Assembly: GCF_046119375.1 (NCBI RefSeq)
Contig: NW_027362771.1
Coordinates: forward strand, 529,604,001-529,668,000
DNA: 64,000 nt
Reading direction: 5' to 3'
Source of the DNA: Phyllobates terribilis
Taxonomy: Eukaryota
Below are positions 5,778 to 60,643 of the stretch, piece after piece. The notes beneath the pieces are model-generated. The model was not told the DNA's origin and did not search any database. It was given only the letters and a program-made list of their open reading frames with translations. Every line of letters begins with the position of its first letter. Positions within the stretch are counted from its first letter, which is position 1. The position numbers were made by a program, and so were the translations under genes.

Positions 5778-6608
5778 CTAGAAGAGAGGTTAACTACCTT
5801 GAAAATCATTAAGGAAGGTGAAGAGTTCTTAGACAGAGCAGAATTATCTCTTCATGATTCAGAAAGAGAAGAAATTCGAACTGCACCTGACGAAACAGAG
5901 GAATGGAAGCATGTGACCCACAGAAGCAGGAGGATCGAGAGGCAGTCAGCACCCATACTGCTCAGGAACCAGTACCAGGCTCTCTCGCAGGAGAACCATG
6001 AAGAAATACAGCAAAATAAGACTTTGCCAGCAATGAATAACCTTGTAAGCCCTCAGAATCCTCCTGGATGGAGAAAGAACAATGTTGTGAAGAAAAAACG
6101 GAGAGTGGTGGTCATGGGGGATTCCCTGTTAAGAGGAACAGAGGCCGCTATCTGCAGACCAGACATAACCTCAAGAGAAATGTGCTGTCTTCCAGGAGCA
6201 AAAATTAAAGATGTGTCTGACAGGATATCAAGACTCTTCAGACCTACAGATCACTACCCATTCCTGCTAATACATGTGGGGACAAATGACACCGCAAGAA
6301 AGGACCTGGAAACCATCTGCAGTGACTTTGAAGACTTAGGCAAGAAAGTGAAAGAATTGGGAGCGCAGGTGGTCTTCTCATCCATCCTCCCAGTGGATGG
6401 CCATGGAACAATGATGTGGAATAAGATTCTACAGGTGAACAACTGGCTACGTCGATGGTGCCGTCAACAAGGATTTGGATTTCTGGATCACGGAATGAAT
6501 TACCTATACGATGGACTACTTGCTAGAGATGGGGTGCACCTTACGAAGACTGGAAAACATGTATTTGGAAGTCGCCTTGCTACACTCATCAGAAGAGCTT
6601 TAAACTAG
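5778..6608 (+). CDS. CR1 ORF1 C-terminal part with SGNH/GDSL esterase domain
   Basis: VVMGDSLLRG, HVGTND and DGVH blocks; the called GTG start lies in the flank, so the N-terminus is missing. Confidence 0.9.
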   Translation, partial: LEERLTTLKIIKEGEEFLDRAELSLHDSEREEIRTAPDETEEWKHVTHRSRRIERQSAPILLRNQYQALSQENHEEIQQNKTLPAMNNLVSPQNPPGWRKNNVVKKKRRVVVMGDSLLRGTEAAICRPDITSREMCCLPGAKIKDVSDRISRLFRPTDHYPFLLIHVGTNDTARKDLETICSDFEDLGKKVKELGAQVVFSSILPVDGHGTMMWNKILQVNNWLRRWCRQQGFGFLDHGMNYLYDGLLARDGVHLTKTGKHVFGSRLATLIRRALN

Positions 6609-6730
6609 AACAATGTGGGAAGGGAAGCAAAAGGCCAGAAAAAGCCATACAGCTGACAAATACTATTGAGATCTCTGCTACTGGAAGTGGAAAAGAAGAA
6701 CAAAGACAAAACAATTTAAATAATAAAAAT

Positions 6731-9517
6731 ATGGGAGGAAGAGAAACCAATCACAAACTAAAATGTTTTTATACAAATGCACAAAGCATGGGCAACAAAC
6801 AAGGAGAATTGGAACTACTGCAGGAAAAGGAATATGATGTCATTGGAATCACTGAAACTTGGTGGGACGATACACATGATTGGAATACAAGGCTAAAAGG
6901 ATACAACTTATTTGCAAGAAACAGACTTGATAAACGAGGAGGAGGTGTTGCATTGTATGTTAGAAAAGCGTATATCTGCACAGAGATTGAAGCTTCAGAG
7001 ACTGGGAGTTCTGTGGAAACTGTTTGGGTAAGAATACAAGGAGAGAACAACGGAAAGGACACCATTGTAGGCATTTACTACAGGCCACCTGGGCAAGCTG
7101 AAGATATGGATGAACTCTTTATGTATCAAATGACCAAGTTCTCCAAAAAATATGACGTAGTGGTCATGGGAGATTTAAACTATCCAGACATTTGTTGGGA
7201 ATCTCTCTCAAGTAAAGCTAACAGGTCAAGCAAATTCTTATCCTCTCTTGCTGACAACTTTATCTTCCAAAAGGTAGGGGAGAAAACAAGGGGATCTGCT
7301 ACTTTGGATCTAATCCTTATAAACAGGGAGGAAATGGTTGAGGAGGTAAAGGTGGCTGGGACCCTAGGAGGCAGCGATCATGCTATTATAGAATTTTGGA
7401 TAACTAGAGGAGGAAGACATGTGAAGACTCAAACTTCAAGGTTAGATTTTAGAAAGGCAGATTTTAAGAGACTCAGAAAGAGAATAGGAGGGATCCAATG
7501 GCTGGATGTCCTTAAGGACAAAAATGTCCAGGAAGGATGGGAAATTTTTAAAAATGAGATTCTCAAAGCACAATCGTTAACAATCCCGAAAAGTAGGAAG
7601 AATGGGAAGCATTTAAGGAAACCAGGATGGATGAACACAGAACTTAAACACATGCTAAAAAGAAAGAAAGAAATGTTTATTAAATGGAAAGAGGGAGGCA
7701 TATCTAAAGAAGATTATAATGCAGTCTGCAGATCCTGCAGGGCACGTATCAGGTTAGCTAAAGCTGACAATGAATTAAGGCTTGCAAGAGATGTCAAAAG
7801 CAATAAAAAAGGATTTTGGGGGTATGTCAAAAGTAAAAGAAAAGTCAAAGATGCTATAGGATTTTTACAGGATGAAAATGGAGAAATGGTAAGAGAGGAT
7901 GTTGAGAAGGCCGAACTTTTTAATTCCTATTTTGCATCTGTTTTCTCTCAGAAAGAAAATGTAACATCAACTGATCTTCACTGTCCTTTTAAAGGAATAG
8001 AGGAATCCAAGTTATCTGTAAACAGAAAGATTGTGAGGGAATATTTAGCTAACATGAATGAGTTCAAGTCTCCAGGTCCAGATGAATTACACCCCAGAGT
8101 ACTGAAGGAGATCGTAGAAGAAATTTTAGAACCACTCTCCATAATCTTTGAAAATTCTTGGAGAACAGGAGAAGTCCCAGAAGACTGGAGAAGAGCAAAT
8201 GTTGTTCCTATCTTCAAAAAGGGGAAGAAGGTGGACCCAGGGAACTATAGGCCGGTGAGTCTGACTTCTATACCAGGAAAGATCTTTGAACAAATTATTA
8301 AACAACATGTATGTAAGTACATGGATAAGAATGAAGTGATTAACCAGAGTCAGCATGGGTTTGTAACTAACAAGTCATGTCAGACTAACTTAATTTCCTT
8401 CTATGACAGAATCACTGACTGGGTGGATCAGGGAAATGCTGTAGATATAGTATATCTTGACTTCAGCAAAGCATTTGACAAAGTATCTCACACCATCCTT
8501 ATTGAAAAAATGACCAAGTATGCAATGGACCAGGCAACTGTTAGGTGGATTCATAACTGGCTTAGTGATCGGACTCAAAGGGTGGTTGCAAATGGCTTCA
8601 CATCCAGCTGGATGAATGTCTCAAGTGGGGTACCACAGGGCTCCGTCCTGGGACCTGTATTGTTCAACATCTTTATCAATGATTTAGATGAAGGAATTGA
8701 GGGTAAACTGATTAAATTTGCTGATGACACAAAGCTAGGAGGGATAGCTAATACTAGAGAAGAGAGAGAGAGGATTCAAAAAGACCTAAATAAACTGGAG
8801 CAGTGGGCAGCAACCAACAGAATGGTTTTTAACAGGGAAAAATGCAAAGTACTACATCTGGGCAATAAAAATGAAAAAAGCATATACAGAATGGGAGGAA
8901 TAGAGCTAAGCAACAGTACATGTGAAAAAGACTTAGGTATACTAATAGATCATAGACTGAACATGAGTCAACAGTGTGATGCAGCAGCAAAAAAGGCAAA
9001 TACAATTCTGGGATGTATTAACAGAAGCATACAGTCTAGATCACGTGAAGTCATTATCGGTCTTTACTCCTCTTTGGTCAGACCTCATCTGGAATACTGT
9101 GTACAGTTTTGGGCACCACATTTTAAAAAAGACATAGACAAACTGGAGCAAGTTCAGAGAAGAGCGACCAGAATGGTGACTGGTCTGCAAACCATGTCCT
9201 ATGAGGAACGGTTGCAGGATTTGGGAATGTTTAGCTTGCAAAAAAGAAGACTGAGAGGAGACTTAATAGCTGTCTACAAATATGTCAAGGGCTGTCACAT
9301 TGTAGAAGGATCATCTTTATTCTCATTTGCACAAGGAAAGACTAGAAGCAATGGGATGAAACTAAATGGGAGGAGACACAGATTAGATATTAGAAAAAAC
9401 TTTTTGACAGTTAGGGTGATCAATGAGTGGAACAGGCTGCCACGAGAGGTGGTGAATTCCCCTTCAATGGACGTCTTCAAACAGAGGCTGGACAGACATC
9501 TGTCTGAGATGATTTAG
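6731..9517 (+). CDS. CR1 ORF2, APE endonuclease plus reverse transcriptase, uninterrupted 928 aa
   Basis: ITETWW, MGDLNY, GSDH; YLDFSKAFD, GVPQGSVLGP, KFADD; HLEYCVQFWAP. Confidence 0.95.
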   Translation: MGGRETNHKLKCFYTNAQSMGNKQGELELLQEKEYDVIGITETWWDDTHDWNTRLKGYNLFARNRLDKRGGGVALYVRKAYICTEIEASETGSSVETVWVRIQGENNGKDTIVGIYYRPPGQAEDMDELFMYQMTKFSKKYDVVVMGDLNYPDICWESLSSKANRSSKFLSSLADNFIFQKVGEKTRGSATLDLILINREEMVEEVKVAGTLGGSDHAIIEFWITRGGRHVKTQTSRLDFRKADFKRLRKRIGGIQWLDVLKDKNVQEGWEIFKNEILKAQSLTIPKSRKNGKHLRKPGWMNTELKHMLKRKKEMFIKWKEGGISKEDYNAVCRSCRARIRLAKADNELRLARDVKSNKKGFWGYVKSKRKVKDAIGFLQDENGEMVREDVEKAELFNSYFASVFSQKENVTSTDLHCPFKGIEESKLSVNRKIVREYLANMNEFKSPGPDELHPRVLKEIVEEILEPLSIIFENSWRTGEVPEDWRRANVVPIFKKGKKVDPGNYRPVSLTSIPGKIFEQIIKQHVCKYMDKNEVINQSQHGFVTNKSCQTNLISFYDRITDWVDQGNAVDIVYLDFSKAFDKVSHTILIEKMTKYAMDQATVRWIHNWLSDRTQRVVANGFTSSWMNVSSGVPQGSVLGPVLFNIFINDLDEGIEGKLIKFADDTKLGGIANTREERERIQKDLNKLEQWAATNRMVFNREKCKVLHLGNKNEKSIYRMGGIELSNSTCEKDLGILIDHRLNMSQQCDAAAKKANTILGCINRSIQSRSREVIIGLYSSLVRPHLEYCVQFWAPHFKKDIDKLEQVQRRATRMVTGLQTMSYEERLQDLGMFSLQKRRLRGDLIAVYKYVKGCHIVEGSSLFSFAQGKTRSNGMKLNGRRHRLDIRKNFLTVRVINEWNRLPREVVNSPSMDVFKQRLDRHLSEMI

Positions 9518-14235: not shown

Positions 14236-14585
14236 TACTAGGGAAGGGACCGAGCAGAGGGACCAGGTGCTACTCTGGGACCGACCTTGTATGACAGCAG
14301 GTGACTCCCACGGGTCAGAAGGCAGGGACTGACCGGTACAGCAGATGAGCACGGCAGGCAGGCTGACGGGTGATCCGGGCAGACAGACTGGCAGACATGG
14401 CAGGTAATAAGCAGGAGCCTCCAGGTAGGCTGGTTGGTAGGCACAGCAGGTAACAGGCAGGTGCTTCCAGGTAAGCAGGCTGGCAGGCACGGCAGGTAAC
14501 GGGCAGGTGCTTCCAGGTAAGCAGGCGGACAGAGCCCATAGACAGACTGGCGGACTGGACTGTAGACAGACTGTCGGGCTGGAGA

Positions 14586-14845
14586 GTAGACAAGCTGGCG
14601 GACTGCACTTGTAGTCAGGCTGGCGGACTGGACTTGTAGTCAGGCTGGCGGACTGGACTTGTAGTCAGGCTGGCGGACTGGACTTGTAGTCAGGCTGGCG
14701 GACTGGACTTGTAGTCAGGCTGGCGGACTGGACTTGTAGTCAGGCTGGCGGGCTGGACTTGTAGTCAGGCTGGCGGGCTAGACTTGTAGTCAGGCTGGCG
14801 GGCTGGACTGGTAGTCAGGCTGGCGGGCTGGACTGGTAGTCAGGC
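14586..14845. repeat. 25-bp tandem repeat in the 3' LTR
   Basis: GTAGTCAGGCTGGCGGACTGGACTT units, 11 GTAG anchors at 25-bp spacing. Confidence 0.9.
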
Positions 14846-15164
14846 TAGCAGCGGGACCTGAGGGCTGAAGCAGAGTATAACACACAAAGCTACAACCTTG
14901 CACGGGCACCTCCATTTTGGAGGAGGTGCCTTTTATATGAGAGGTCCTCCGGCCATTGGCCGGGGACTCCTTAGGACGGCGCGCGCGCGCGCCCTAAGCA
15001 CAGTGCCCGGAAAGCTGCGCGTGCCGGCAGCAACAGAGGCAGGAGAGCATGAGGACGCCGGGCAGGGTGTGCGGCTGTAAGTGGGACCGCGTCTCTGCCT
15101 GTCAGGGGGCAGAGACGCCGATACTACAGTAGCCCCAACTTTACGCCCCCTATTTTTTAGGCCT

Positions 15165-16742
15165 GAAAGAAATTTTTTAAGGAGAAGCGGGGCGTGGATG
15201 TTCTCCCTGGGTTCCCAAGTTCTCTCCTCTGGGCCAAACCCCTTCCAATCCACCAGAAAAAAAGGTTTTTCCTCTTACCCTCTTGGTGGCCAGAATGTTC
15301 TCTACCTCATAGATGTCCTCAGCGGAGACCGGAGCTGGGGAGGTACCTGGATTGTCGGAAAAAGAATTAAGCACAACAGGTTTGAGGAGAGATACGTGGA
15401 AGGAGTTGGGAATCCGTAAGGTGGCCAGGAGTTTTAACTTGTAAGCTACTGGGTTGATTCGTTGGAGGACTTCAAATGGGCCGATGAACCGTGGACCCAA
15501 CTTATAGGAGGGTATTTTGAGACGAACTTGTTTGGAGGAGAGCCAAACCTTGTCTCCCGGATGGAATTGAGGCGGATCCAGACGTCTCTTATCAGCATGT
15601 CTCTTCATCCGCTCAGAGGATTGAAGAAGTTCAGACCTAGTGTCCTCCCAAATGGTCGAAAATTCGCTGACCAGAGACTCCGCGGCAGGGTTGTCCACAG
15701 CAGCCGAAACGGGAAACGGAATCCGGGGATGTTGACCGCAGACCACAAAGAACGGGGACTTGGAAGAAGATTCGCTCTCATGGTTGTTGTAGGAGAACTC
15801 GGCCCATGGTAGGAGCTCCACCCAATCGGTATGGTGAGCGTTGACGAAGTGTCGGCGGTAGCTGGTAAGGATCTGATTGATACGTTCCACTTGGCCATTG
15901 GACTGCGGATGGTAAGCAGAGGAGAAATCCAGGGTGACATCCAGCAGTTTACACGTATCTCTCCAGAAGCGCAAAGTGAACTGGACCCCTCGATCAGATA
16001 CTATGTTGAGGAGTAGGCCGTGGAGACGAAAGATGTGATGGATGAAATCCTTAGCCAGCACAGATGCAGACGGGAGACCAGGCAGAGGGATGAAGTGGGC
16101 CATTTTAGAAAAGCGGTCAGCGACCACCCAAATGACTGTACAACCGGCAGAAACAGGGAGATCAGTAATAAAGTCCATAGCAATGTATTGCCACGGGGCA
16201 GCAGGTACGGGAAGAGGCAGGAGATGGCCGGCTGGAAGATGTCTGGGAAGTTTATTGCGAGCACAGGACGAACAGGCCGTGACGAAGTCTACCACATCCT
16301 GGCGCAGGGTAGGCCACCAGTAATGCCGGGTAATGAGCAGGAAGGTCTTCTTCTGGCCAGCATGGCCGGCTAGTTTGGATGAATGACCCCAGTGAAGAAC
16401 CTTCTTACGATCCGGAACCACTACAAACGTCTTACCAGGTGGGAGATGAGAAAGGTCCAAGGGGGCCACATTCATCACTTTGGAGGGGTCGATGATATGC
16501 ATAGGCTCCTCCTCTTGATCGGACGACAAGAAGGATCGGGACAAGGCTTCGGCTTTAACGTTCTTGTCCGCCGGGCGGTAATGTAGGGTAAAGTTGAAGC
16601 GGGCGAAGAACAAAGACCACCGGGCCTGACGCGGATTGAGTCTTTGGGCATTCTGTAGATAAGCCAGGTTTTTGTGGTCAGTATAGATGACCACCGGGTG
16701 CAGAGTCCCCTCGAGCAGGTAACGCCACTCCTCCAGCGCCAA
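15165..16742 (-). pseudogene. pol: Chromovirus RNase H end, integrase and C-terminal chromodomain
   Basis: HSSKLAGH...CSSC, IAMDFITDLP, IVSDRGVQF, HPQSNGQVERIN; chromodomain DIYEVENILA...WKGFGPEERTWEP split by a frameshift near 15255. Confidence 0.9.
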
Positions 16743-16760
16743 TTTGATGGCTAGCAGTTC

Positions 16761-18332
16761 TCAGTCTCCTATGGAGTAGTTGTGCTCAGACGAGGAGAAG
16801 AGCTTGGAGAAGAAGCCGCAGGTTACCATTCTCCCGGATGGAGATTTCTGGGTGAGCACCGCTCCGGCTCCGGCAGAGGAAGCATCAACCTCCAGAAAGA
16901 ACTGTTTGTTGCTATCTGTACAGTGCAGCACAGGGGCGGAAGAGAAGGCTTGTTTTAAGGAAAGGAAGGCCTCCTCCGCTTCGGACGGCCATTCCTTAGG
17001 ATTTGCTCCCTTTCGGATGAGTGCAGAGATGGGAGCAGTCCGGGAAGAGAAATGTGGAATGAAGAGACGGTAATAGTTGGTGAAGCACAGGAATCGCTGA
17101 ATCGCCTTCAACCCCTCCGGACGGGGCCACTTTAAGACGGCAGAGACCTTCTCGGGGTCCATCCGTAGACCAGTCTTAGAGATAATATAGCCCAGGAACA
17201 GAAGGGAGGTCTGCTCGTAGAGGCACTTCTCAAAGTTTGCATAAAGGTGATTCTGCTTGAGCCTAAGCAGGACCTGACGAACATCCCTCCGGTGTGTGGG
17301 AAGATCCAGAGAGAAGACCAAGATGTCGTCCAGGTACACCACCACGCAAGAATATAAGAGGTCACGAAAGATGTCATTAACTAATCCTTGGAAGACGGCA
17401 GGAGCATTACAGAGACCGAAGGGCATCACACGGTATTCATAGTGACCGTCCCGGTTATTGAATGGCGTCTTCCACTCGTCTTCTTGGCGGATCCGGACCA
17501 AGTTATATGCCCCACGAAGATCGAGCTTGGTGAAGATCTTCGCGCCTTTAAGGCGGTCGAACAGCTCAGAGATGAGCGGCAGGGGGTATTTGTTTTTGGT
17601 AGTGATTTGGTTGAGACCTCTATAATCGATACATGGGCGTAGTGAACCGTCTTTCTTTTTTACGAAGAAAAATCCGGCTCCAGCCGGGGAGGAAGATTTC
17701 CGGATGAATCCCCTAGCCAGATTTTCTTCGATGTACTCCGACATGGCCCGGGTTTCGGCCAACGACAACGGGTAAATACGCCCACAGGGTGGAGTGGCAC
17801 CGGGTATCAGGTCGATAGGGCAGTCATATGGCCTATGAGGTGGCAGTGTCTCTGCCTCCTTCTTGTTGAAGACATCAGCATAGGACCAGTAAGGTGCCAG
17901 TAGACCAGGTAAATTAGTCGGAGTAGATGGAGGTAGAGCCGGGCGAACCGGAACCAGGTAGGTCTTATGGCAATCCTGCCCCCAACGGAGCACCTCACCG
18001 GATTGCCAGTTCAGAATGGGTACATGTCTCTGTAGCCAGAGTAGACCTAGCAAAAGAGGGTGAGAGAGTCCGGAAAGCACATGGAAGGAGATCCTCTCTG
18101 AGTGCAGCATTCCCACCTGCAGGGTTACGGGCTCTGTGACGAGCAAGATGGTCACCGGAAGGAGTCTTCCATCCACGGAAGCGACTGCCAATGGTTCAGC
18201 CAGAGATTTGGTAGGAATCTGATATTTCTGTACAAGGGACTGGGAAATGAGATTCCCAGCGGCTCTGGAGTCCAGATGGGCGGTCTCAAAGAAGCGGTTC
18301 TCTCCACAGGAGATAGAGACGGACAAAGTCAA
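16761..18332 (-). pseudogene. pol: Chromovirus protease-RT-RNase H
   Basis: HLDSRAAGN (mutated DSGA), PCIDYRGLN, VVYLDDILVFS, LEVDASSAGAGAVL. Confidence 0.9.
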
Positions 18333-18379
18333 GAACGGAGAGGATTTACTCTTGCCTAGGACGACCTCTCCGAGCGGTC

Positions 18380-19155
18380 CTAGACACTGGAGTTTCCTGG
18401 CTTCATCGGGCAGGAACGGATCAGGTGCTCCTTACTACCATAGTAGAAGCAGCTCCCCTCGGCTCGGCGTGTTTCTTGGCGAGATTTGACCATCTTGGTC
18501 TGGTCAATCTGCATAGGTTCGGGCGAGCGTGCCTGGGGAGTTGCTGATTGGGAAGCCGGTTTCTGGAAAACAGGAGCAAGACGAGGAAATCTTCTCTCCC
18601 GAGGGTACGGAACCATATGGCATACTGTGCCACAATGAGACTCCCTTTGCGGAGACGGAGCAATGAGGAGGCAGTAGAAATCCTTTGTCCAGGTTCATCG
18701 AAGACCTTCCGGAAGGCAGTGAGGAAAGCTGGAAGATCGGACACCAGGGAATCCCCTCTCTCCCATAGAGGGTTTAGCCATACCAATGCTTCCCCGGAGA
18801 GGTGAGACATGACGAACGCCACCTTGGCCCGGTCAGAGGGAAACTGATGTGGCAGAAGTTCAAAGTGCAGCGTGCACTGGTTCAGAAAGCCCCGACATAG
18901 GATGGGGTCACCTCCAAAATGAGGAGGCGCAGAGAGTCGGGGTCCTAGGCTGGATGCCGTGGTATTGGTAGGCAGCGGCGCTGCCGGAGCGGGTGTCGCT
19001 CGACTTGAGGCGGACACAGGTGGAACAGACAGCGTGTCCAGGCGAGAGTTGACAGACCGCAGGTAGGTCAGGATGGTTTCCTGTTGGGATCTCTGATGAG
19101 AAACCTCCTGGCACAGGTCAGCAAGCGAATGGGACTGGGGGCCACTGGGTTCCAT
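18380..19155 (-). pseudogene. gag: Chromovirus gag (Ty3 capsid-like, degenerate zinc knuckle), frameshifted
   Basis: PPHFGGDPILCRGFLNQCTLHF...KVAFVMSHLSGEALVW; CFYYGSKEHLIRSC knuckle lacking one Cys. Confidence 0.85.
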
Positions 19156-19156
19156 G

Positions 19157-19166
19157 GCCCGTGCAA
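19157..19166 (-). promoter_or_regulatory. Self-priming-type primer binding site
   Basis: TTGCACGGGC lies 2 nt after the LTR and is complementary to GCCCGTGCAA at 14907-14898, 30 nt from TATAAAA. Confidence 0.75.
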
Positions 19167-19633
19167 ACTGTTACGGATTCGGGTGGTGGAACCTCTGTGC
19201 TGCGGTGCAAGGAGGGACTAGAGGGTCGTAACTAGGTATCAACTCGGACCGACCAAGGTCGTACGGCGGCTCAATCGACTCCATGACCAGGGAGGGACCG
19301 AGCAGAGGGACCAGGTGCCTCTCTGGGACCGACCTTGTATGAGAGCAGGTGACTCCCACGGGTCAGAAGGCAGGGACTGACCATTACAGCAGATGAGCAC
19401 GGCAGGTAGGCTGACGGGTGATCCGGGCAGACGGACTGGCAGACACGGCAGGTAACAAGCAGGAGCCTCCAGGTAGGCTGGCTGGTAGACACGGCAGGTA
19501 ACAGGCAGGTGCTTCCAGGTAAGCGGGCTGGCAGGCACGGCAGGTAACGGGCAGGTGCTTCCAGGTAAGCAGGCGGACAGAGCCCATAGACAGACTGGCG
19601 GACTGGACTGTAGACAGACTTTCGGGCTGGAGA

Positions 19634-19995
19634 GTAGACAAGCTGGTGGACTGGACTTGTAGTTAGGCTGGCGGACTGGACTTGTAGTCAAGCTGGCGGG
19701 CTGGACTTGTAGTCAGGCTGGCGGGTTGGACTTGTAGTCAGGCTGGCGAGCTGGACTTGTAGTCAGGCTGGCGGGCTAGACTTGTAGTCAGGCTGGCGGG
19801 CTGGACTTGTAGACAGGCTGGCGGGCTGGACTGGTAGTCAAGCTGTCGGGCTGGACTTGTAGTCAGGCTGGCGGGCTGGACTTGTAGTCAGGCTGGCGGG
19901 CTGGACTTGTAGTCAGGCTGGCAGGCTGGACTTGTAGACAGGCTGGCGGGCTGGACTGGTAGTCAGGTTGGCGGGCTCGACTGGTAGTCAGGCTA
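19634..19995. repeat. 25-bp tandem repeat in the 5' LTR
   Basis: 15 GTAG anchors at 25-bp spacing. Confidence 0.9.
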
Positions 19996-20449
19996 GCAGC
20001 GGGACCTGAGGGCTGAAGCAGAGTATAACACACAAAGCTGCAACCTTGCATGGGCACCTCCATTTTGGAGGAGGTGCCTTTTATATGAGAGGTCCTTCGG
20101 CCATTGGCCGGGGACTCCTTAGGACGGCACGCGCGCCCCCTTTAAGAGGGAGGGAGCGCGCGCGTGCCCTAAGCACAGTGCCCGGGAAGCTGCGCGTGTC
20201 GGCAGCAACAGAGGCAGGAGCGCCGGATGACGCCGGGCAGGGAGCGTGGCGGTAAGTGGGACGGCGTCTCTGCCTGTCAGGGGGCAGAGACGCCGATACT
20301 ACAGAGAACTTTTCTCATCTCTAGTTACAGCTACTGCTACTGTAATTGTGCATATCTACAAGAATTCAGCTTGAAAATTAACCTTCTTCTGGAATCTTCA
20401 TACGTGCCTCCTGCAGTCGAGTCAAGCTATCTGATGAAATCTGTTTGTG

Positions 20450-33890: not shown

Positions 33891-36221
33891 CATTTACCCC
33901 TGGGGGTATACATGAACATACTGTATAAAACAATTTTTTTACTGGCACCCTTTAAAAAATTATGTGGGTGTTGCATCACGGACCACGGTCACCCTAGTGA
34001 TATGGTGGTGGAAGATGAGGAGAAAGAGGAGGAAAGAGCAAATAGCCAAAATCAGGGAACGTATACCCATGTGTGGGTGTGAAAAGGTGCATGGGAATAC
34101 ACCTCCCAAAAAATACACTGGATTTGAGTTTATGTTACGCTGCTATCATTCGGTGGTGTTGAGAAGTCTGGCCCAATCCAGCCCGTGTTCATTTTTATAA
34201 GAGTCAGCCTGTCAGCATTTTCAGTTGACAGGCGGATGCGCTTATCAGTTATAATTCCACCAGCGGCACTAAAAACCTGCTCTGATAAAACGCTAGCGGC
34301 AGGGCAGGCCAGGACCTCCAAGGCGTAGAGAGCCAGTTTATTCCATGTATCCAGCTTGGATACCCAATAATTATAAGGCACAGAGGCATCACGGAGGAGG
34401 TTGGTACAGTCGGCAAGGTATTCCCTCAGCATCTTCCCAAACTTTGCACTCCTTGTGAGAGTACCCCGCGCCTCAGGGCCTGTGCGATGGGAGGGGCTGA
34501 GAAAATTCTCCCAGAACTTTGACAGTGTTCCCCTGGCTCTGCTGGATTGGAGTTGTGTCTCTCTCGCCTGTAGTCCTTGGTTATCCAACGAACCGTGACC
34601 TCTGCCGCCAGTGTTTTCAGATGGGAATTTTTTTAATAGTTCCGCAACAAGGGCTTTCTGGTACTGCCCCATTTTTGTAGACCTGTCCACCTCAGGATAA
34701 GAGATAAACAGTTCTCCTTGTAGCGTGGGTCTAGAAGTGTCACCAACCAGTAATGACTGTCACCCAAAATTTTGAGAACGCGAGGGTCATGGGAAAGGCA
34801 GCGTAACATAAACTCAGCCATGCGTGCCAGACTGCTAACAGGCAAGACTTCCGTGTCCTCACCAAGAGGATGAGTGACCATGCTCTTCTCCTCCTGTCTA
34901 TCCTCAGGCCATCCACGCTGAACAGACGTTATGACAGTTGTACACGTAGTACCGTCTATAGCGCATGAAACTTGCTCCTGTTCTTCCTCCTCCTCCTCTT
35001 CCTCATTGTCACCTAATCCACGTTGAGATGAGATGAGGCTGGGCTGTGTGTAATCACCCTGTATGGTTCCTTTCTCCATCTCATCGTGCTCCGCCTGCAA
35101 TGCATCCTCTTTGATTGTGAGCAGAGAGCGTTTCAGAAGACAGAGAAGCGGGATGGTGACGCTAATTATGGCGTCATCGCCACACACCATCTTGGTGGAG
35201 TCTTCAAAGTTTTGGAGGATGGTACATATGACTGACATCCATGTCCACTCCTGAGTTCTTATGTGTGGAGTCTGAATACCGACAGCCTTGTTGATGCTGG
35301 TACTCAACAACTGCCCTCTTCTGCTCACAAATCCGTCCCAACATCTACAGTGTAGAGTTCCAACGTGTGGGGACATCACACACCAGTCTGTGAGGCGGAA
35401 GCTGCAAACGCTGCTGAAACACGGCAAGGGCGGCGGAAGCTGTAGGTGACTTTCTAAAAGGGGCACACAGGTGGCGTACTTTAACAAGCAGATTCAGCAG
35501 CTCTGGGTAGGATTTGAGAAATCGCTGAACCACGAGGTTAAGCACATGGGCCAGGCATGGTATGTGTGTGAGCTCGTCTCGCCTCAGAGCCGCCACCAGG
35601 TTCCGGCCATTGTCTCACACGACCATGCCTGGCTGTAGGTTCAGCCGTGTGAGCCACAGATCTGCCAGCTCTTTCAGAGTTGTCCACAACTTTTCAGCAT
35701 TGTGCGGTTTGTTACGTAAGCATATTAGCTTCAACACAGCCTGTTGCCGCTTGGCCGAGGCAGTGCTGCAGAGCTTCCAGCTTGTGACTGATGTGGTAAT
35801 TTCGGAGATGGAGGCTGAAGAGGAGGAGGAGGCTGAGGAGGATGAGGTGCAGGAGCTGTAGACTGTGGGGGCAACCCTGATTGACCTAGGTGTAACATAC
35901 CTGGCGGCGTCCTTGCATGGTGGTCCATCTCCCACTGTGCAAGAGGGCGCACTTGATCTCCTGTCCAGAATGTCTCTCTGGCTTCCCTCCATGCTGTCTG
36001 TTTGTGTCTGTTTCTGCTGCTTAAGGGCGGCGCCCGATCACTTCCTGCCTTTTGTACCTGCTGTGGGTCACACCCCTTGTGCGTCCTCAGCCTATTGCTG
36101 TCTGTCACTTGGTATATAGCTCAGCAGCTCCCTTCTATCCCTGCCTGAGCATAGTGTTTCCTTCAGTGTGTGCTTGCACTCTGAAGGTGCCAGGTCCCGT
36201 CTCTTGTCTCCTGCTTTTTGT

Positions 36222-36490
36222 ATCAGTTCCCGTGTCTGAACTGAGTCCTGTATGTCTCCTGCTTTGCGGTATCAGCTCCCGTGTCTGAACTGAGTCCTGT
36301 ATGTCTCCTGCTTTGCGGTATCAGCTCCCGTGTCTGAACTGTGTCCTGTATGTCTCCTGCTTTGCGGTATCAGCTCCCGTGTCTGAACTGAGTCCTGTAT
36401 GTCTCCTGCTTTGCGGTATCAGCTCCCGTGTCTGAACTGAGTCCTGTATGTCTCCTGCTTTGCGGTATCAGCTCCCGTGTCTGAACTGAC
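36222..36490. repeat. 49-bp tandem repeat in the 5' LTR (6 anchors)
   Basis: GTGTCTGAAC at 36232, 36281, 36330, 36379, 36428, 36477. Confidence 0.95.
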
Positions 36491-37263
36491 TCCTTTCTGT
36501 GTTCTCTTGTCTGTCCTGTCTGAACACGCTCCTAGCCTGTTCCTCTCTGGGGGCCGTATTCCCAGACCCGCTCCTGTATCCCTCTGCAGTGTCGGTCTCC
36601 TCCGTACACTCAGTTCCAGTCTGAACTCTCTCCTGTCCTTTACCTGTTTTGCCTCTATGTCCGTTCCCTTCCTTTTTCTGCAGAGTCTGAACTCGTACCT
36701 AACTCCTGCTTGTTGTCTCTGCAAGTACTGTGTGAGTATCTGGCTCTGTCTTTCCCTTCCTGTCTGTTCCGTGTGAACAGAGCCTTGTCCTCCCTGCTCA
36801 GCCTTGTCTGCACTCTAGCTGTGCTTGCCTGTAACCCTCTGCCTGTATTGTTCCTGAGTCCCGGTGTGTACTGGGTCCTATCCCGCCTGTGTTCCTACCT
36901 GCTAGTGCCTCTCTGTCTGCACTCTAGCTGTGCTTGCCTTTACCCCCCTGCCTGCATACCCGCCTGCCTGCATACCAGTCGTGCCTGCCTATACCCACCA
37001 GTCTGTGTGCCAGCCTACCAGCCTGTTCCTGTATTCCCCTGTGTGGGTCAACAGCCGTGTCCGGGGTCTGTCCTGGAGTAGCACCTGGTCCCTCTGCTCG
37101 GTTCCTCCTTGGTGCACTGGCGTCGTATGCCGTCGTGCGACCCTGGTCGGATCGGGTGAATACTTAGTCACGCCCCTCCAGGCATTCACTCTCCGGCACG
37201 GTCCAGTGGAATCACTACCAATCACACGCACACGCCGCTTAGCCCGGGCGTGTGCATAACAGC

Positions 37264-37273
37264 ATGCTCAGGC
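37264..37273 (+). promoter_or_regulatory. Self-priming-type primer binding site
   Basis: ATGCTCAGGC lies 2 nt after the LTR and is complementary to GCCTGAGCAT at 36143-36152, 30 nt after TATATAG (36113). Confidence 0.8.
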
Positions 37274-37404
37274 CATGGTTCCCGTTGAGCCCCACGGCCT
37301 TCGCTCTTTGAGAAGTTTTTCCAGCGAATACATGCATTAAAATAAAATAAATACATTTTTTTCCCCCTTTAGCTGAGTTCCAGGCGAATTACGCACCCGT
37401 CCAG

Positions 37405-39309
37405 ATGGATCTATCAGCCCTCGTTCCTGCGGATCCGCCACGTTACTATGGGGATCCAAGACAGTGTCGTGCATTTGTGGAGCAATGCATGCTACACTTT
37501 AAGGCCTACCCTCTCTATTTTCCTTCCGATTGGGCTAAAGTGGCCTTTATGATTGACTACCTAGCGGGTGATGCCTTGAAATGGGTCACCCCCCTATGGG
37601 AAGCATGGGATCCTGTCATCCTTGACCTGCAGGCCTTCCTGGTGGCCTTTCGTATGGTCTTCGAGGACCCTAACTCTGAAGCCCCTGCTGAAGCTTCACT
37701 TCCCAATATCCCGGAGCAGCCCCGACGGGTAATGTGTGTGGGTAGCGCAATAGTCCTCCAGCCCAATGAGACTACTGCCCACCCAGAATCCTCACAAGGT
37801 GACTACGCTTTCCGGAATACTTCTCTCAACCTCAAGAGGCAGTCCAGACGTGCTAGACTTAGAGGCAAGCCGTCACGCCAGGGTCTGTCCTCCCTGAGAC
37901 CTCCTGACCCCAACCTTGAAGTCCCTACTGAAGCTTCATCTCCCTGTATCCCGGAGAAACCCCAATGGGTAATGTGCGTGGGTAGTGCACCAGTTCTCCT
38001 GGCCGAAGAGACTTCTGCCCATCCAGACTCCACACAGGAGAACTTCCTGCACCCGGCATCAGATGCTTCTTTCTCTTTAACCGGTGTGCATGTCCAAGGA
38101 TGCTCCAAAGCTGTGGTTACCTCAGAGTCTGTGCACCTCTACTACCTGGCGGAGGATCCCCTGTTGCCTCCTGAACCCTCCGGGATACCACTCGATGACA
38201 AATGGAGAGAGACTTCTCTACACCCGGTACTCAATACTTTGTCCGCTTCGTCCTGTGAGCCTGACAATGGGTACCCCAAAGTGGTAGTTACCTCCGAGTC
38301 TCTACACCCCTCCGACCAGGCGGAGGATCTCCAGTTGTCTCCTGAACCCTTCGGGGTGCTACCTGGTAGCGAAAGGACAGAGACTCTCCTATACTCTGTA
38401 CCTGATACCTCGCTCGCTTCGTCCAGTGAGTCCAACCTAGTGTACTCCGAAGCAGAGGTTACTCCTGAGTCTCTACACCCTTCCGACCAGGCGGAGGACC
38501 TCCAGTTGTGTTCAGAATCCTTCGGGGTGCCACCTGGTGGTGAATGGACAGAGACTTTCCTATATCCTGGATCTGATACCTCGCTTGCTTCGTCCAGTGA
38601 GTCCGACCTAGTGTACTCTGAAGCAGAGGTTACCCGTGAGTCTCTACACCCCTCTGACCAGGCGGAGGACCGCCAGCTGTCTCCAGAACCCTTCGGGGTG
38701 CCACCTGGTGGTGAATGGACAGAGACTTTCCTATACTCGGTACCCGATACCTCGCCTGCTTCCTCCAGTGAGTCCGACCTAGTGTACTCTGAAGCAGTTG
38801 TTTTCTCTGAGCCTCTGCACTCTTCTGACCCGGCGGAGGACCTCCAGTTGTTTCCTGAATCCTCCGGGATACCACCAGATAACAAAGAGACAGTGACTTT
38901 TCCTCATTATGTACCTGATAACCCGTCTATTTCTTCCTGTGAGCTTGACAAGATGTACCTCGAAGCAGAGATTACCCTTAAGTCTCTGTCCCCCTCCAAC
39001 CCAGTGAACGACTGGTCCTCGAATTCCCTGCGGAAGATTCTGGCAGGCCTGAAGAAGAGGGGGCGTAAGGGGGGAGGTACTGTAACATACCTGGCGGCGT
39101 CCTTGCATGGTGGTCCATCTCCCACTGTGCAAGAGGGCGCACTTGATCTCCTGTCCAGAATGTCTCTCTGGCTTCCCTCCATGCTGTCTGTTTGTGTCTG
39201 TTTCTGCTGCTTAAGGGCGGCGCCCGATCACTTCCTGCCTTTTGTACCTGCTGTGGGTCACACCCCTTGTGCGTCCTCAGCCTATTGCTGTCTGTCACTT
39301 GGTATATAG
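37405..39309 (+). CDS. 634-aa Ty3 capsid-like protein fused to acidic Ser/Pro/Glu tandem repeats, running into the 3' LTR
   Basis: PPRYYGDPRQCRAFVEQCMLHF...KVAFMIDYLAGDALKW matches the gag at 18421-19155; five 57-aa repeats; no stops. Confidence 0.8.
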   Translation: MDLSALVPADPPRYYGDPRQCRAFVEQCMLHFKAYPLYFPSDWAKVAFMIDYLAGDALKWVTPLWEAWDPVILDLQAFLVAFRMVFEDPNSEAPAEASLPNIPEQPRRVMCVGSAIVLQPNETTAHPESSQGDYAFRNTSLNLKRQSRRARLRGKPSRQGLSSLRPPDPNLEVPTEASSPCIPEKPQWVMCVGSAPVLLAEETSAHPDSTQENFLHPASDASFSLTGVHVQGCSKAVVTSESVHLYYLAEDPLLPPEPSGIPLDDKWRETSLHPVLNTLSASSCEPDNGYPKVVVTSESLHPSDQAEDLQLSPEPFGVLPGSERTETLLYSVPDTSLASSSESNLVYSEAEVTPESLHPSDQAEDLQLCSESFGVPPGGEWTETFLYPGSDTSLASSSESDLVYSEAEVTRESLHPSDQAEDRQLSPEPFGVPPGGEWTETFLYSVPDTSPASSSESDLVYSEAVVFSEPLHSSDPAEDLQLFPESSGIPPDNKETVTFPHYVPDNPSISSCELDKMYLEAEITLKSLSPSNPVNDWSSNSLRKILAGLKKRGRKGGGTVTYLAASLHGGPSPTVQEGALDLLSRMSLWLPSMLSVCVCFCCLRAAPDHFLPFVPAVGHTPCASSAYCCLSLGI

Positions 39310-39411
39310 CTCAGCAGCTCCCTTCTATCCCTGCCTGAGCATAGTGTTTCCTTCAGTGTGTGCTTGCACTCTGAAGGTGCCAGGTCCCGTCTCTTGTCTC
39401 CTGCTTTTTGT

Positions 39412-39778
39412 ATCAGTTCCCGTGTCTGAACTGAGTCCTGTATGTCTCCTGCTTTGCGGTATCAGCTCCCGTGTCTGAACTGTGTCCTGTATGTCTCCTG
39501 CTTTGCGGTATCAGCTCCCGTGTCTGAACTGAGTCCTGTATGTCTCCTGCTTTGCGGTATCAGCTCCCGTGTCTGAACTGAGTCCTGTATGTCTCCTGCT
39601 TTGCGGTATCAGCTCCCGTGTCTGAACTGTGTCCTGTATGTCTCCTGCTTTGCGGTATCAGCTCCCGTGTCTGAACTGAGTCCTGTATGTCTCCTGCTTT
39701 GCGGTATCAGCTCCCGTGTCTGAACTGAGTCCTGTATGTCTCCTGCTTTGCGGTATCAGCTCCCGTGTCTGAACTGAC
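39412..39778. repeat. 49-bp tandem repeat in the 3' LTR (8 anchors)
   Basis: GTGTCTGAAC from 39422 to 39765 at 49-bp spacing. Confidence 0.95.
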
Positions 39779-40865
39779 TCCTTTCTGTGTTCTCTTGTCT
39801 GTCCTGTCTGAACACGCTCCTAGCCTGTTCCTCTCTGGGGGCCGTATTCCCAGACCCGCTCCTGTATCCCTCTGCAGTGTCGGTCTCCTCCGTACACTCA
39901 GTTCCAGTCTGAACTCTCTCCTGTCCTTTACCTGTTTTGCCTCTATGTCCGTTCCCTTCCTTTTTCTGCAGAGTCTGAACTCGTACCTAACTCCTGCTTG
40001 TTGTCTCTGCAAGTACTGTGTGAGTATCTGGCTCTGTCTTTCCCTTCCTGTCTGTTCCGTGTGAACAGAGCCCTGTCCTCCCTGCTCAGCCTTGTCTGCA
40101 CTCTAGCTGTGCTTGCCTGTAACCCTCTGCCTGTATTGTTCCTGAGTCCCGGTGTGTACTGGGTCCTATCCCGCCTGTGTTCCTACCTGCTAGTGCCTCT
40201 CTGTCTGCACTCTAGCTGTGCTTGCCTTTACCCCCCTGCCTGCATACCCGCCTGCCTGCATACCAGTCGTGCCTGCCTATACCCACCAGTCTGTGTGCCA
40301 GCCTACCAGCCTGTTCCTGTATTCCCCTGTGTGGGTCAACAGCCGTGTCCGGGGTCTGTCCTGGAGTAGCACCTGGTCCCTCTGCTCGGTTCCTCCTTGG
40401 TGCACTGGCGTCGTATGCCGTCGTGCGACCCTGGTCGGATCGGGTGAATACTTAGTCACGCCCCTCCAGGCATTCACTCTCCGGCACGGTCCAGTGGAAT
40501 CACTACCAATCACACGCACACGCCGCTTAGCCCGGGCGTGTGCATAACACTAGGGCCTTCGATCCTTGGCGTCGGGAGGATGTGTTCCATTCCAAGGTCT
40601 GACTGGGTCCTGGCTTCCACTAGGTTAACCCAGTGTGCCATCAGTGAGATGTACCGTCCCTGCCCACAAGCACTTGTCCACGTGTCCCTGGTTAGGTGGA
40701 CTTTCCCTATAACTGCATTGTTGAGGGAACGGCTAATGTTTTCGGACACGTGCTTGTGTAATGCGGGGACGGCACACTGGGAGAAATAGTGGCGACTGGG
40801 GACCGAGTACTGAGGAACGGCCGCCGCCATCAGGTTGCGGAATGCATCCGTCTCCATGAGCCTTA

Positions 40866-41698
40866 GGCTATGTGCCCACGATGCAGAAATGAAGCAGAAA
40901 ATTTCTGCAGCATTTCTGCATCTCCCTGGCAGAAAAAACGCATGCAGATTGTGCATGCGTTTTTCCTGCAGAATACATGCGGATTCACATGCGTACCCAC
41001 ATGCGTTAACGCATGTGTTTCCGCATGCGGACTGACAAGCACTTTCCAAGCGATAGCATCACTTGGAAAGTGCTTGACAACTAGGTCACACTGTATAAAT
41101 CCATGCAAACAGCATGGATTTATATAGTGTGACCGTAAAAATAAAAAAATAAAGTTATACTTACCCCCGATACCCCGCCGCGTGTGCTGTCGCGCTCGTC
41201 CTGGCTTCTTCCGGGTTGCCGGCATCTCGCGAGACAGCCTGCGGTCACATGACCGCGACGTCATCTCAGGTCCTGGAAGGTAAGCGCTGCAGGGGCCGCC
41301 GGACAGGTGAATATAAACTTTATTTATTATTTTATTCTTTTTTTTACAGGTACAATGGTACCCAGGTCTGGATGAGAGTCTCCTCTCCTCCAGAACTGGG
41401 TACCATCCGCACATAGAGACGCATAAAATCCGCTTGTACAAATGTACAGACACGGATTCTATGCGTCTCAATGCAAGTCAATGGCGGCGCTTCCGCTGCG
41501 CTTCCGCAAAATTAATGAACATGCTGCGGATTTATTTGCGCTGTAGAAACGCTGCGGAAAAATCCGGAGCATGTGCATTGACATTGCGGAATGCCATTGG
41601 GGACCATGGGGTGCGGATTACCATGCGTTTTTGATGCGTTTCCGCTGCGGAAATTCCGCAGCATAAACGCATGAAAAACGCATCGTGTGCACGCAGTC
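40866..41698. mobile_element. PIF/Harbinger MITE
   Basis: TIR GGCTATGTGCCCACG with degenerate right copy; flanks TTA/TAA; transposase text resumes on both sides. Confidence 0.85.
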
Positions 41699-42984
41699 TA
41701 AAAGGCAACATTTTGAGCGCAAGCAGTCGTGAAATGTGGGAATTTAGTACTGTTGCCTCTGGGGCGTTGGCTGCGTATTTGCACTTGCGTTCCAAGGAGT
41801 GGGGTATGGACAACTGAACGCTGCGCTGGGACAAGGACGTGGACGTGCTTCCTGATGTTGCTACTTGAGAGTGTGCAATGACAGGTGCAGGGCAGGAGGC
41901 ATCTTCGCATGCACCATGGACAGGGGATTGGCTTGCATGTACAACAGCGGAAGAAGCAGTGGTGCCACCCGTAGACACTGTTCCTGGACCCTGGGGTTCG
42001 GCCCACAAAGTCGGGTGCTTTGCTGCCATGTGCCTGATCATGCTGGTGGTGGTCAGGCTGCTCATTTTGCCACCCCTGCTGATGCCAGCCTGGCAGGTGG
42101 TGCAAATGGCCTTTTTGAGGTTATCGGCAGAATCTTTAAAAAACAACCAGACTCGGGAAGACCTAACAGTTCTACTGGCAACTTCCTTCGTGTTGGTGTT
42201 ACGGGGAATGGTTGCCTGCCTTCTGTCTGCGGCCACCGCACTGCTTCTTCCTGCCTGTTGGGGTGCTCTGCCTCCCTCCCCCTGTGAGCTGCTCTCCTCG
42301 CTCTGCATGTCCTCCTGCCAGGTTGGGTCAGTTACTATATCATCCACCACCTCGTCTTCCACTTCCGCAGTCTGGTCCTCCTCCTGACTTTCTGGCAATT
42401 GTGTCTCAACATTGTCCACCTCTTGTGACACCTTCCCACGGTCGCCTTTGTGTGTCCGTGGCTGCTCAAATATTTGGGCATCGCTACATGCGATCTCCTC
42501 TTGCCCCGCTTCAAGTGGACCGGATGAGAGGCCCGAATCTATAAATGGGAAAGTGAACAGCATTTTGGAGTGTCCAAGTGTGGGATCAGTTGTCTCTGGG
42601 CACTCGGCATGGTGTGAGGAAGGAGGTTCAGGGTGAGGAATATGCAGTCCAGACTCACAGCTACTGAGACTTGACTGTGTGGAAGAGAAGGTGGTGGTGG
42701 TGGTGGCTAAGTGACTGGAAGCATTATCTGCTATCCAACCAATAACCTTTTCACACTGCTCTGTGTTCAATAGTCGTGTTCTGCGGTCCCCAATTAATTG
42801 GGACAGGAAGGCCGAGCAAGAAGATGTGTTTGTTGTGGCACAATTTCAGCTTGCCCACGGCCTCGGCCTCTGCATGCACCATCACCATCACGTCCAGTTT
42901 CCTGTCCCTTGCCACGTGCCTTGCCCATTTTACATGGAGGACAATATCTTCCACACTCACTACAAATGACTGAATTTGGAGCGA

Positions 42985-59587: not shown

Positions 59588-59722
59588 AGGCCGGAGACGA
59601 CGCCGCGGAGGGAGCCACGAGGACCAAGGCAGGTAAAGGGGACGTTACCACCCCAGGCCCAGCAGCTGCAAGCCCGCCCCAGCCTCCCGTCGCAGAGCCC
59701 GAAGCCCCACTCACCGTACCTG

Positions 59723-60643
59723 TTGCCGCGCCGTCACTACTGCCGGCTAGGCCTCAAGCGGCAGGAGCGCGGTGAAGAAGGAGGCGTCACCAGCCGGGTC
59801 GCAAGGCCTAGTGAACCCGGGCGCCGTTACCCCACCAGCGCCCCCCTCCTGGACCGGGCCGCCACCGGAAGACCCCCGGCCTGGTCGCAAGGCCGAGTGC
59901 CCCCGGGCGCTGCTCCCAAACCGGGGCCCTCCGCTATACCACCGCTGGGCGCAGACCTGTTTGCCCAGCACACCGGTCCGGATGGACTGCCGTTGGTGTG
60001 GCCGGCCGAGCTGGTCAGCGGTCGACCATGGAAGACCCAGCCCCCGCGCGAGCCCCTGATACCTGCTCCGGAGCCCGTAGAAGTCACCTTGCCCCCACTA
60101 GAGGACGCCCAATTTGAGTGGGACCCCACTGGCGAAAACCTAATGGGGTTCACTCAGGAGACCCGGGCAGATGCAGCCCGCCGTCTGGAGTCCTGTCGTC
60201 AGCAGCTGGTGACCTTTGAGCGGGAACGGCGACAGAGGCGCGTTAGGGAGGAGCGGCTTCAGGCCCAGAGTGCCGAGCAGAAACGCAAGGCCCGTCAAGA
60301 CCCCCGAGCCGCCCGCGGTCCCCGAGCCACCGGGACCGTGATAAAGTTCCAGATGGAGAATGGCTGGGGCTTTATAAGGGACCCGGAAACCGCCGGTGAC
60401 GTCTTTGTGACTCGCAGGGACGTCGAAAGCCATCTGCCAGAGGGACACCGTGGACGTGACCTATACCCTGGTGATGTGGTCACCTATACCCGGCACAAGG
60501 GCGCCAAAGGACCATACACCCTCCATGTCCACCGGCTTACTGAGGAGGAACTGCAGCACTACGGCTACGAGGAGAGCCAAGAGGACCTGGACGGGTCTGA
60601 AGACTATCCTGAGGAAGGTGCGCAAGGAGGACACCGCTACTGA
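59723..60643 (+). CDS. Cold-shock-domain protein: Pro-rich region, Arg/Glu helix, CSD (60326-60538), acidic tail
   Basis: TGTVIKF...NGWGFI (RNP1-like), DVFVT (RNP2-like), LYPGDVVTY...KGPYTLHV; the true start is uncertain (TTG call). Confidence 0.85.
   Translation: MPRRHYCRLGLKRQERGEEGGVTSRVARPSEPGRRYPTSAPLLDRAATGRPPAWSQGRVPPGAAPKPGPSAIPPLGADLFAQHTGPDGLPLVWPAELVSGRPWKTQPPREPLIPAPEPVEVTLPPLEDAQFEWDPTGENLMGFTQETRADAARRLESCRQQLVTFERERRQRRVREERLQAQSAEQKRKARQDPRAARGPRATGTVIKFQMENGWGFIRDPETAGDVFVTRRDVESHLPEGHRGRDLYPGDVVTYTRHKGAKGPYTLHVHRLTEEELQHYGYEESQEDLDGSEDYPEEGAQGGHRY

Follow-up and report, generated by a model that had tools for sequence, protein, structure and literature searches.

In a 64,000-nt stretch of Phyllobates terribilis DNA (contig NW_027362771.1; hereafter the window, in whose positions all coordinates are given), a long terminal repeat (LTR) retroelement at 35891-40549 carries one long open reading frame (ORF) of 634 aa, running on the plus strand from an internal ATG at 37405 to a TAG stop at 39307-39309 (37405-39309). 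As judged from its sequence, the element is a mobile non-autonomous derivative of Tf1/sushi-type chromoviruses (Ty3/gypsy). Comparison of the copies of its family (family A) and of a sister subfamily (B) shows that stops and frameshifts were selected against in the lineages that multiplied, and that the amino acids of a capsid N-lobe at the start of the ORF are under moderate constraint, with none detected over most of the remaining ~470 codons. To account for this pattern we propose, at a probability of about 0.5, a helper-dependent Tf1/sushi-type element that is required to translate its own ORF, with the nascent N-lobe tethering its own RNA to the capsid of the helper.

Selection against stops and frameshifts in copies that multiplied

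The sequence spanning the primer-binding site (PBS) and the gag start has 8,545 exact matches in the genome, and two junctions between polypurine tract (PPT) and LTR have 4,923 and, for the window's own junction, 3,140; the reversed controls gave 0 throughout. Our sample, all of it from the first 76 Mb of one contig, consists of 60 out of the 61 junction copies listed first, plus 14 additional ones taken from the PBS matches; three of the 60 were excluded (one of subfamily B, one interrupted and one without its 5' part). The reverse transcriptase (RT) core, RNase H and integrase were found inside none of the 74 sampled copies (0/74), and a degenerate protease is retained in one. Perfect target-site duplications (TSDs) flank 49 of the 55 copies in which they were measurable, and the median LTR divergence is 0.6%. 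An earlier note, made from the window alone, had proposed a mobile non-autonomous chromovirus derivative, and the copy number, the TSDs and the absence of these pol domains agree with it. The same note had named ORF retention in collected copies as a check: the frame is open from the N-lobe to the PPT in 38 of 57 sampled copies, and frameshifted copies are not the majority.

Variants private to one copy arose mostly after insertion and are expected to be neutral, whereas variants common to several copies have been replicated; we scored both classes over the first 285 and the last 145 codons. Across the 57 copies and the window element, 10 private stops were observed against 13.1 expected, and 1 inherited stop against 14.7. 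The family-A set was enlarged to 100 copies (the 57 sampled, the 14 from the PBS matches and 29 of the 30 best genome matches, one of these 29 being the window element itself), in which nonsynonymous (N), synonymous (S) and stop variants numbered 307, 132 and 12 when private, 131, 57 and 1 at 2-3 carriers, and 203, 90 and 0 at four or more. Stops thus make up 1 of 482 inherited and 12 of 451 private variants (P=0.0013). Outside the N-lobe the depletion persists (1/392 inherited vs 11/368 private, P=0.0025), and the N/S ratio is 2.43 in both classes. Subfamily B, represented by 21 copies of which 20 were picked by similarity to one copy, gave N/S/stop counts of 309/121/23 private vs 131/71/1 inherited, with stops at 1/203 vs 23/453 (P=0.0026); for A and B combined, the stop depletion reaches P=3e-7. 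Frameshifting indels follow the same pattern in family A, accounting for none of 4 inherited and 15 of 21 private indels (P=0.017).

In codon models fitted to 35 open copies, the N-lobe had an omega of 0.55, the linker 1.56 and the tail 0.97, with the repeat blocks at 1.03, 0.75 and 0.90. When private codons were masked, the N-lobe value was 0.45 and 0.52 in two A alleles and 0.53 in B (P=0.0003, 0.033 and 0.035, respectively). The acidic repeats, which the earlier note had pointed out, do not behave as sequence-constrained protein, given omega of 0.75-1.03 in the repeat blocks and identical N/S in both variant classes outside the N-lobe. That both repeat periods are divisible by 3, one of its arguments, is true but weak evidence alone, the real evidence being the comparison between copies. 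Selection that parts multiplied from unmultiplied copies must act in cis, so the replicating RNA is most likely itself translated, and we infer that translation of the ORF is selected in cis.

Layout of the ORF and its capsid lobe

All features of the element are on the plus strand. The first 88 residues (37405-37668) match Pfam DUF4939 at 32.1 bits (cutoff 29) and are 44-50% identical in amino acids to autonomous gag N-lobes; their predicted structure is one helical capsid lobe (pLDDT 85), for which a structure search gave dArc1, PNMA2 and the Ty3 capsid as best matches, all at E>0.2. On this sequence and fold evidence the ORF keeps the capsid N-lobe only, the C-lobe being degenerate; the earlier description of the element as capsid-only therefore stands for the capsid-like N-terminus and has to be narrowed to a single lobe. 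Two blocks with a 240-nt period follow (37669-38109; 73% identical over 150 nt), the first of which starts at the expected position of the C-lobe and is degenerate. Five 171-nt (57-aa) acidic Ser/Pro-rich units come next (38110-38964), 68-90% identical among themselves and containing 54 D/E vs 8 K/R in 285 aa; ORF length, block spacing and units agree with the earlier note. The number of units differs among copies, mostly in length steps of 57 codons, giving frame lengths of 408-902 codons. A partial unit, a remnant of the integrase tail and the PPT occupy 38965-39080. The tail does resemble that of the element at 15177 (79% over 47 nt), and the frame, once thought to end at KGGGTV, extends 75 codons further, across U3 of the 3' LTR, to a stop that lies inside the TATA box. 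Since the reading frame into the LTR shifts with the G-run of the PPT, a constrained C-terminal tail encoded in the LTR was rejected as a feature of the whole family.

The nucleocapsid (NC) region is unrecognisable in the window ORF, and the window's subfamily has lost, by an in-frame deletion, 195 nt of degenerate chromodomain that other copies retain in frame (34% identical). Searched against autonomous pol, the 171-nt unit gave a best tblastn match at E>=0.2, and blastn found nothing in three autonomous copies. In subfamily B the 171-nt repeats start at the point where the RT remnant stops, and an RT-derived origin of the unit would be a lead only. Among proteins of similar length, searches with the whole interior ORF and with residues 1-130 returned no homologue, the ESM Atlas gave no usable match to two repeat units, and a PDB sequence search produced matches only at E>=0.57. 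The window also has an antisense frame open for 253 codons from stop to stop, in keeping with the caveat of the earlier note. As a gene it was rejected, since no antisense frame is open over the repeat region in any of the 35 open copies; in 33 of them, though, the last 88 codons do have an open antisense frame.

The internal ATG is present in 99 of 101 family-A copies. The native gag start (37275) now opens a 21-codon upstream ORF (37275-37340). In none of 68 family-A copies does it connect to the capsid lobe, all 68 being cut off from the main frame by a length-variable A/T tract that evolved in family A just downstream of the PBS (37336-37368; AATAAA, poly-T, YAG); in subfamily B the native ATG connects to the lobe in 5 of 18 copies. 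The YAG is kept in 46 of the 49 copies where it was located, with variable preceding bases, and the tract is possibly a splice acceptor, a poly(A) signal or a slippery site. Contigs from two runs of uncertain kind span the region, and no listed joint in them ends at the acceptor-like AG near 37368, a result that speaks neither for splicing nor against it.

A proposed nascent-chain tether weighed against other explanations

In the mechanism that we propose, capsid, RT and integrase would be borrowed from an autonomous family. Ribosomes would arrive at the internal ATG past the short upstream ORF, and the N-lobe would fold co-translationally and dock on the assembling helper capsid, with the long low-complexity remainder serving as a tether that keeps the N-lobe on its own RNA during translation. 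The tethered RNA would then enter particles ahead of competitors, and it would be the length and openness of the filler that count, not its sequence. Such a nascent-chain tether agrees with an N-lobe under constraint that is followed by a remainder free to vary yet free of stops, and it takes one step further the principle reported for the mouse IΔ1 element discussed below. According to the account in PMC3945221, Ty1 RNA nucleates particles co-translationally. The idea in the earlier note that the product may hijack helper particles fits, provided that it acts in cis. More tentatively, and with more doubt than confidence, the family might be described as a long-lived vertebrate LTR parasite whose protein has shrunk to one capsid lobe, held on a translational leash of no particular sequence that in-frame tandem repeats tune in length.

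Several observations weigh against this proposal. The nearest abundant autonomous N-lobe is only ~61% identical in nucleotides and 45-50% in amino acids, and with such divergence binding to the helper capsid is not self-evident; the fold matches are weak (best E=0.24), and 10 upstream ATGs precede the main ATG. N-lobe omega of ~0.5 lies well above the 0.11 of autonomous copies, the count-based N/S test of the N-lobe is not significant (P=0.13), and the copies recombine, so that exchange between two N-lobe alleles may bias the codon models. Inherited stops and frame changes do occur: a single stop at codon 122 with 2-3 carriers in A, another at codon 4 with 2 carriers in B, one frameshift, near the PPT, among three inherited indels of B, and a frame into the LTR that changes with the length of the G-run. 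The inherited-variant counts are minimum events with no tree behind them, and duplicated loci can mix the private and inherited classes, an effect that runs against the signal.

Of the other explanations, the one that survives best, although we consider it less likely than the tether, is that translation alone matters: the open frame would keep the RNA from being destroyed by nonsense-mediated decay or by another pathway that surveys long untranslated tails, the protein would be idle, and the conservation of the N-lobe would reflect either an RNA packaging signal that overlaps it or its import through recombination. Omega of ~1 across most of the ORF favors this explanation, as do the degenerate NC, protease, RT start and chromodomain that stay in frame in B and in most A copies, the gathering of inherited frame changes near the PPT, and the window's subfamily, in which 10 of 11 copies are open up to an identical stop in the LTR, 24 nt before the inferred start of R. 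Coronavirus defective-interfering (DI) RNAs provide a precedent, those of mouse hepatitis virus (MHV) being described as needing a long open frame, mostly regardless of its content (PMC8255065, citing de Groot 1992 and van der Most 1995). Unlike MHV DI RNAs, which belong to an RNA virus and do not integrate, the present family also has one amino-acid-constrained domain: N-lobe omega is below 1 in each of three groups separately, which an RNA-level signal does not predict, and the first 52 linker codons have omega of 0.64 across A and B (P=0.009).

It appears improbable that the whole protein, acidic repeats included, is a cis-acting capsid variant, for example one that shapes condensates or particles through charge and disorder, with selection acting on composition. 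The strong acidity of the repeat blocks and an omega of 0.61-0.77 in some unit blocks with private codons masked would agree with such a role, and disordered regions often have omega near 1. However, the number of units is inconstant, subfamily B fills the equivalent space partly with a degenerate protease, and N/S is equal in private and inherited variants.

Poisoning of helper particles, the other half of the earlier suggestion, would require the product to act in trans as a dominant-negative capsid fragment that keeps the autonomous family in check, in the manner of Ty1 p22 or Fv1. A single capsid lobe is able to restrict in trans, as Ty1 p22 does, and Ty1 p22 CA-CTD structures are among the fold matches. 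We nonetheless regard poisoning in trans as very improbable. It leaves the failure of stop-bearing copies to multiply unexplained, the observed selection being of the kind that acts in cis; a product acting in trans would be a common good among at least 8,500 copies; it would reduce the family's own particle supply; and no single conserved locus was seen. Equally implausible is a neutral remnant whose frame is open merely because young copies inherited it so: openness is expected at this LTR divergence, and the window copy also has its long antisense frame, but hundreds of inherited substitutions include almost no stops, all five alternative frames contain stops over the repeat region in 35 of 35 open copies, and the lengths of the non-coding leader are spread evenly over the three frames (20/17/15).

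Non-autonomous LTR elements are usually thought to require only cis DNA or RNA signals, whereas thousands of natural copies here indicate that translating a mostly meaningless frame is itself under selection. Open and stop-bearing young copies occur side by side in one genome, and the family is relevant to the selection of Ty3/gypsy RNA for packaging (cis preference vs decay). It contributes a roughly estimated ~50 Mb to the 10.6-Gb genome, and annotation pipelines would label its ORFs "uncharacterised genes". If true, the tether would be the LTR counterpart of co-translational hijacking, in ~8,500 copies.

Element structure, relatives and surroundings

The element is a very young insertion. 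It is flanked by identical 5-bp TSDs (CTAGG at 35886-35890 and 40550-40554), and its 5' LTR (35891-37261; TG...CA, 1371 nt, with an extended U5) and 3' LTR (39081-40549; 1469 nt) differ by a single substitution (36785/40073) in 1371 aligned bases, apart from the length of a 49-nt minisatellite, which has 5.9 copies in the 5' LTR (36205-36494) and two more units, 7.9 copies, in the 3' LTR (39395-39782). A TATA box (36113-36119) lies ~30 nt upstream of the inferred transcription start, with the same spacing in subfamily B and the autonomous family. The inferred RNA 5' end (36143-36152) would serve as self-primer, being complementary over 10 nt to a Tf1/sushi-type self-priming PBS (37264-37273), and the PPT lies at 39067-39077. 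The perfect TSD, the nearly identical LTRs and the intact priming site and PPT were all noticed at the first inspection of the window and hold on closer analysis.

Family A, subfamily B and the autonomous family have three different PBSs, each matched by its LTR complement in most copies tested through compensatory changes; no such match was found in 2 of 14 B copies nor in the neighboring element of the window. We judge the self-priming pairing to be real because PBS and LTR complement covary across the three groups. Self-priming is given in PMC6317226 as a mark of Tf1/sushi chromoviruses such as Tf1 and sushi-ichi, and the family shares with them this type of PBS, TG...CA LTRs, the 5-bp TSD, the PPT, a post-chromodomain tail and a homologous gag N-lobe. 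Unlike them, it has no RT core, RNase H or integrase, and it either lacks the C-lobe, zinc knuckle, protease and chromodomain or keeps them in degenerate form, so that the intact series of protease, RT, RNase H, integrase and chromodomain of an autonomous chromovirus is absent.

The LTRs of the family have U5 regions with subfamily-specific minisatellites, and LTR lengths are often unequal within one copy (e.g., 2966 vs 1320 nt) at <2% substitution divergence. At 36855-37154, within U5, contig depth is one to two orders of magnitude above that of the interior, and the U5 end is common to the window element and the autonomous family; together these suggest many solo LTRs or related families. 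Tandem LTR-interior-LTR-interior arrays of the family also exist, with paired junction matches ~3.4-4 kb apart.

Subfamily B, with 3,335 first-look candidates, joins gag, NC, protease, RT start, repeats and chromodomain remnant in one frame, of which NC, protease and RT start are degenerate, and this fused layout likely shows the history of the family. Against an intact autonomous copy, its identity is 45% in the N-lobe, 23% in the C-lobe, 26% in NC, 30% in the protease and 30% in the RT start; when autonomous copies are compared with each other, it is usually the N-lobe that diverges most of these domains, one protease variant at 76% being the exception. Downstream of two B-type PBS matches there is neither gag/pol homology nor a long ORF, and these matches possibly mark another non-coding derivative. 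The abundant autonomous family accounts for 64 of the first 100 among 31,090 broader PBS matches; all 16 sampled members have gag and pol homology, 12 of them with pol frames >1000 codons, and it is a candidate helper. A broken copy of it lies in the window at 14242-20303 on the minus strand; its LTRs contain minisatellites of 25 and 46 nt, and one LTR seems shortened near 14242. The U5 end of the window element is 78% identical over 119 nt to that of this neighbor, which is nevertheless ruled out as direct parent (N-lobe 67% identical in nucleotides, U3 unlike).

Non-autonomous gag-bearing LTR elements and cis-acting translation are already known. The TR-GAG elements of plants have LTRs and a gag-derived ORF, lack pol and are mobilised in trans, and their Gag is complete, with both capsid lobes and a zinc knuckle. 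The present family resembles them in its LTRs, its gag-derived ORF and its lack of pol, and differs in its vertebrate host, its half capsid, the absence of a zinc knuckle and frame-only selection over most of the ORF. The gag of the mammalian RTL/SIRH/PEG10 genes presumably comes from the same ancestral clade as the window element. These genes are described as single-copy, domesticated and immobile (PMC11011659), so the analogy with host domestication that the earlier note had drawn is inapplicable to a multicopy mobile parasite: in place of a single fixed locus with lost LTRs and strong purifying selection, we find 8,545 matches, intact LTRs and omega of 0.5-1. Closer is the IΔ1 form of the mouse intracisternal A-particle (IAP), whose fusion protein is reported to act in cis (Saito et al. 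2008, as related in PMC6466679 and PMC7411935). Both are non-autonomous, reach high copy number and retain a long in-frame fusion ORF; IAP IΔ1 needs Gag and Pol in trans and its ORF appears to matter in cis, the cis action of the window family being deduced from variation. IAP IΔ1 is, in these accounts, retrovirus-derived with a recent 1.9-kb deletion, whereas the window family belongs to the Ty3/gypsy chromoviruses, stands far from the autonomous family that was sampled (N-lobes ~61% identical in nucleotides) and has one capsid lobe, an internal start and neutrally evolving tandem-repeat filler. The D-type elements of bovine ERVK[2-1-LTR], which by the account in PMC10924933 dominate new insertions through trans-complementation although defective, are akin in this respect; the same source describes them as lacking intact ORFs, the opposite of the frame retention seen here. 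In the literature searched, which left most subscription journals outside and did not cover Repbase, we found no amphibian family of this kind and no vertebrate chromovirus family combining a half capsid with frame-only-selected repeat filler.

The element is inserted in a decayed hAT DNA transposon on the minus strand (34133-35890 and 40555-42845), with a zf-BED domain at 41535-42845 and a dimerisation domain at 34133-34759, the transposase frame of which resumes across the TSD. Elsewhere in the window, a 351-codon ORF with a cold-shock domain (59588-60643) lies between 97%-identical direct repeats (57658 and 61304), possibly inside another small LTR element. At 5766-9517 there is a long interspersed nuclear element (LINE), which we take to be CR1-like, with an SGNH/esterase piece of ORF1 and an open 996-codon endonuclease-RT frame.

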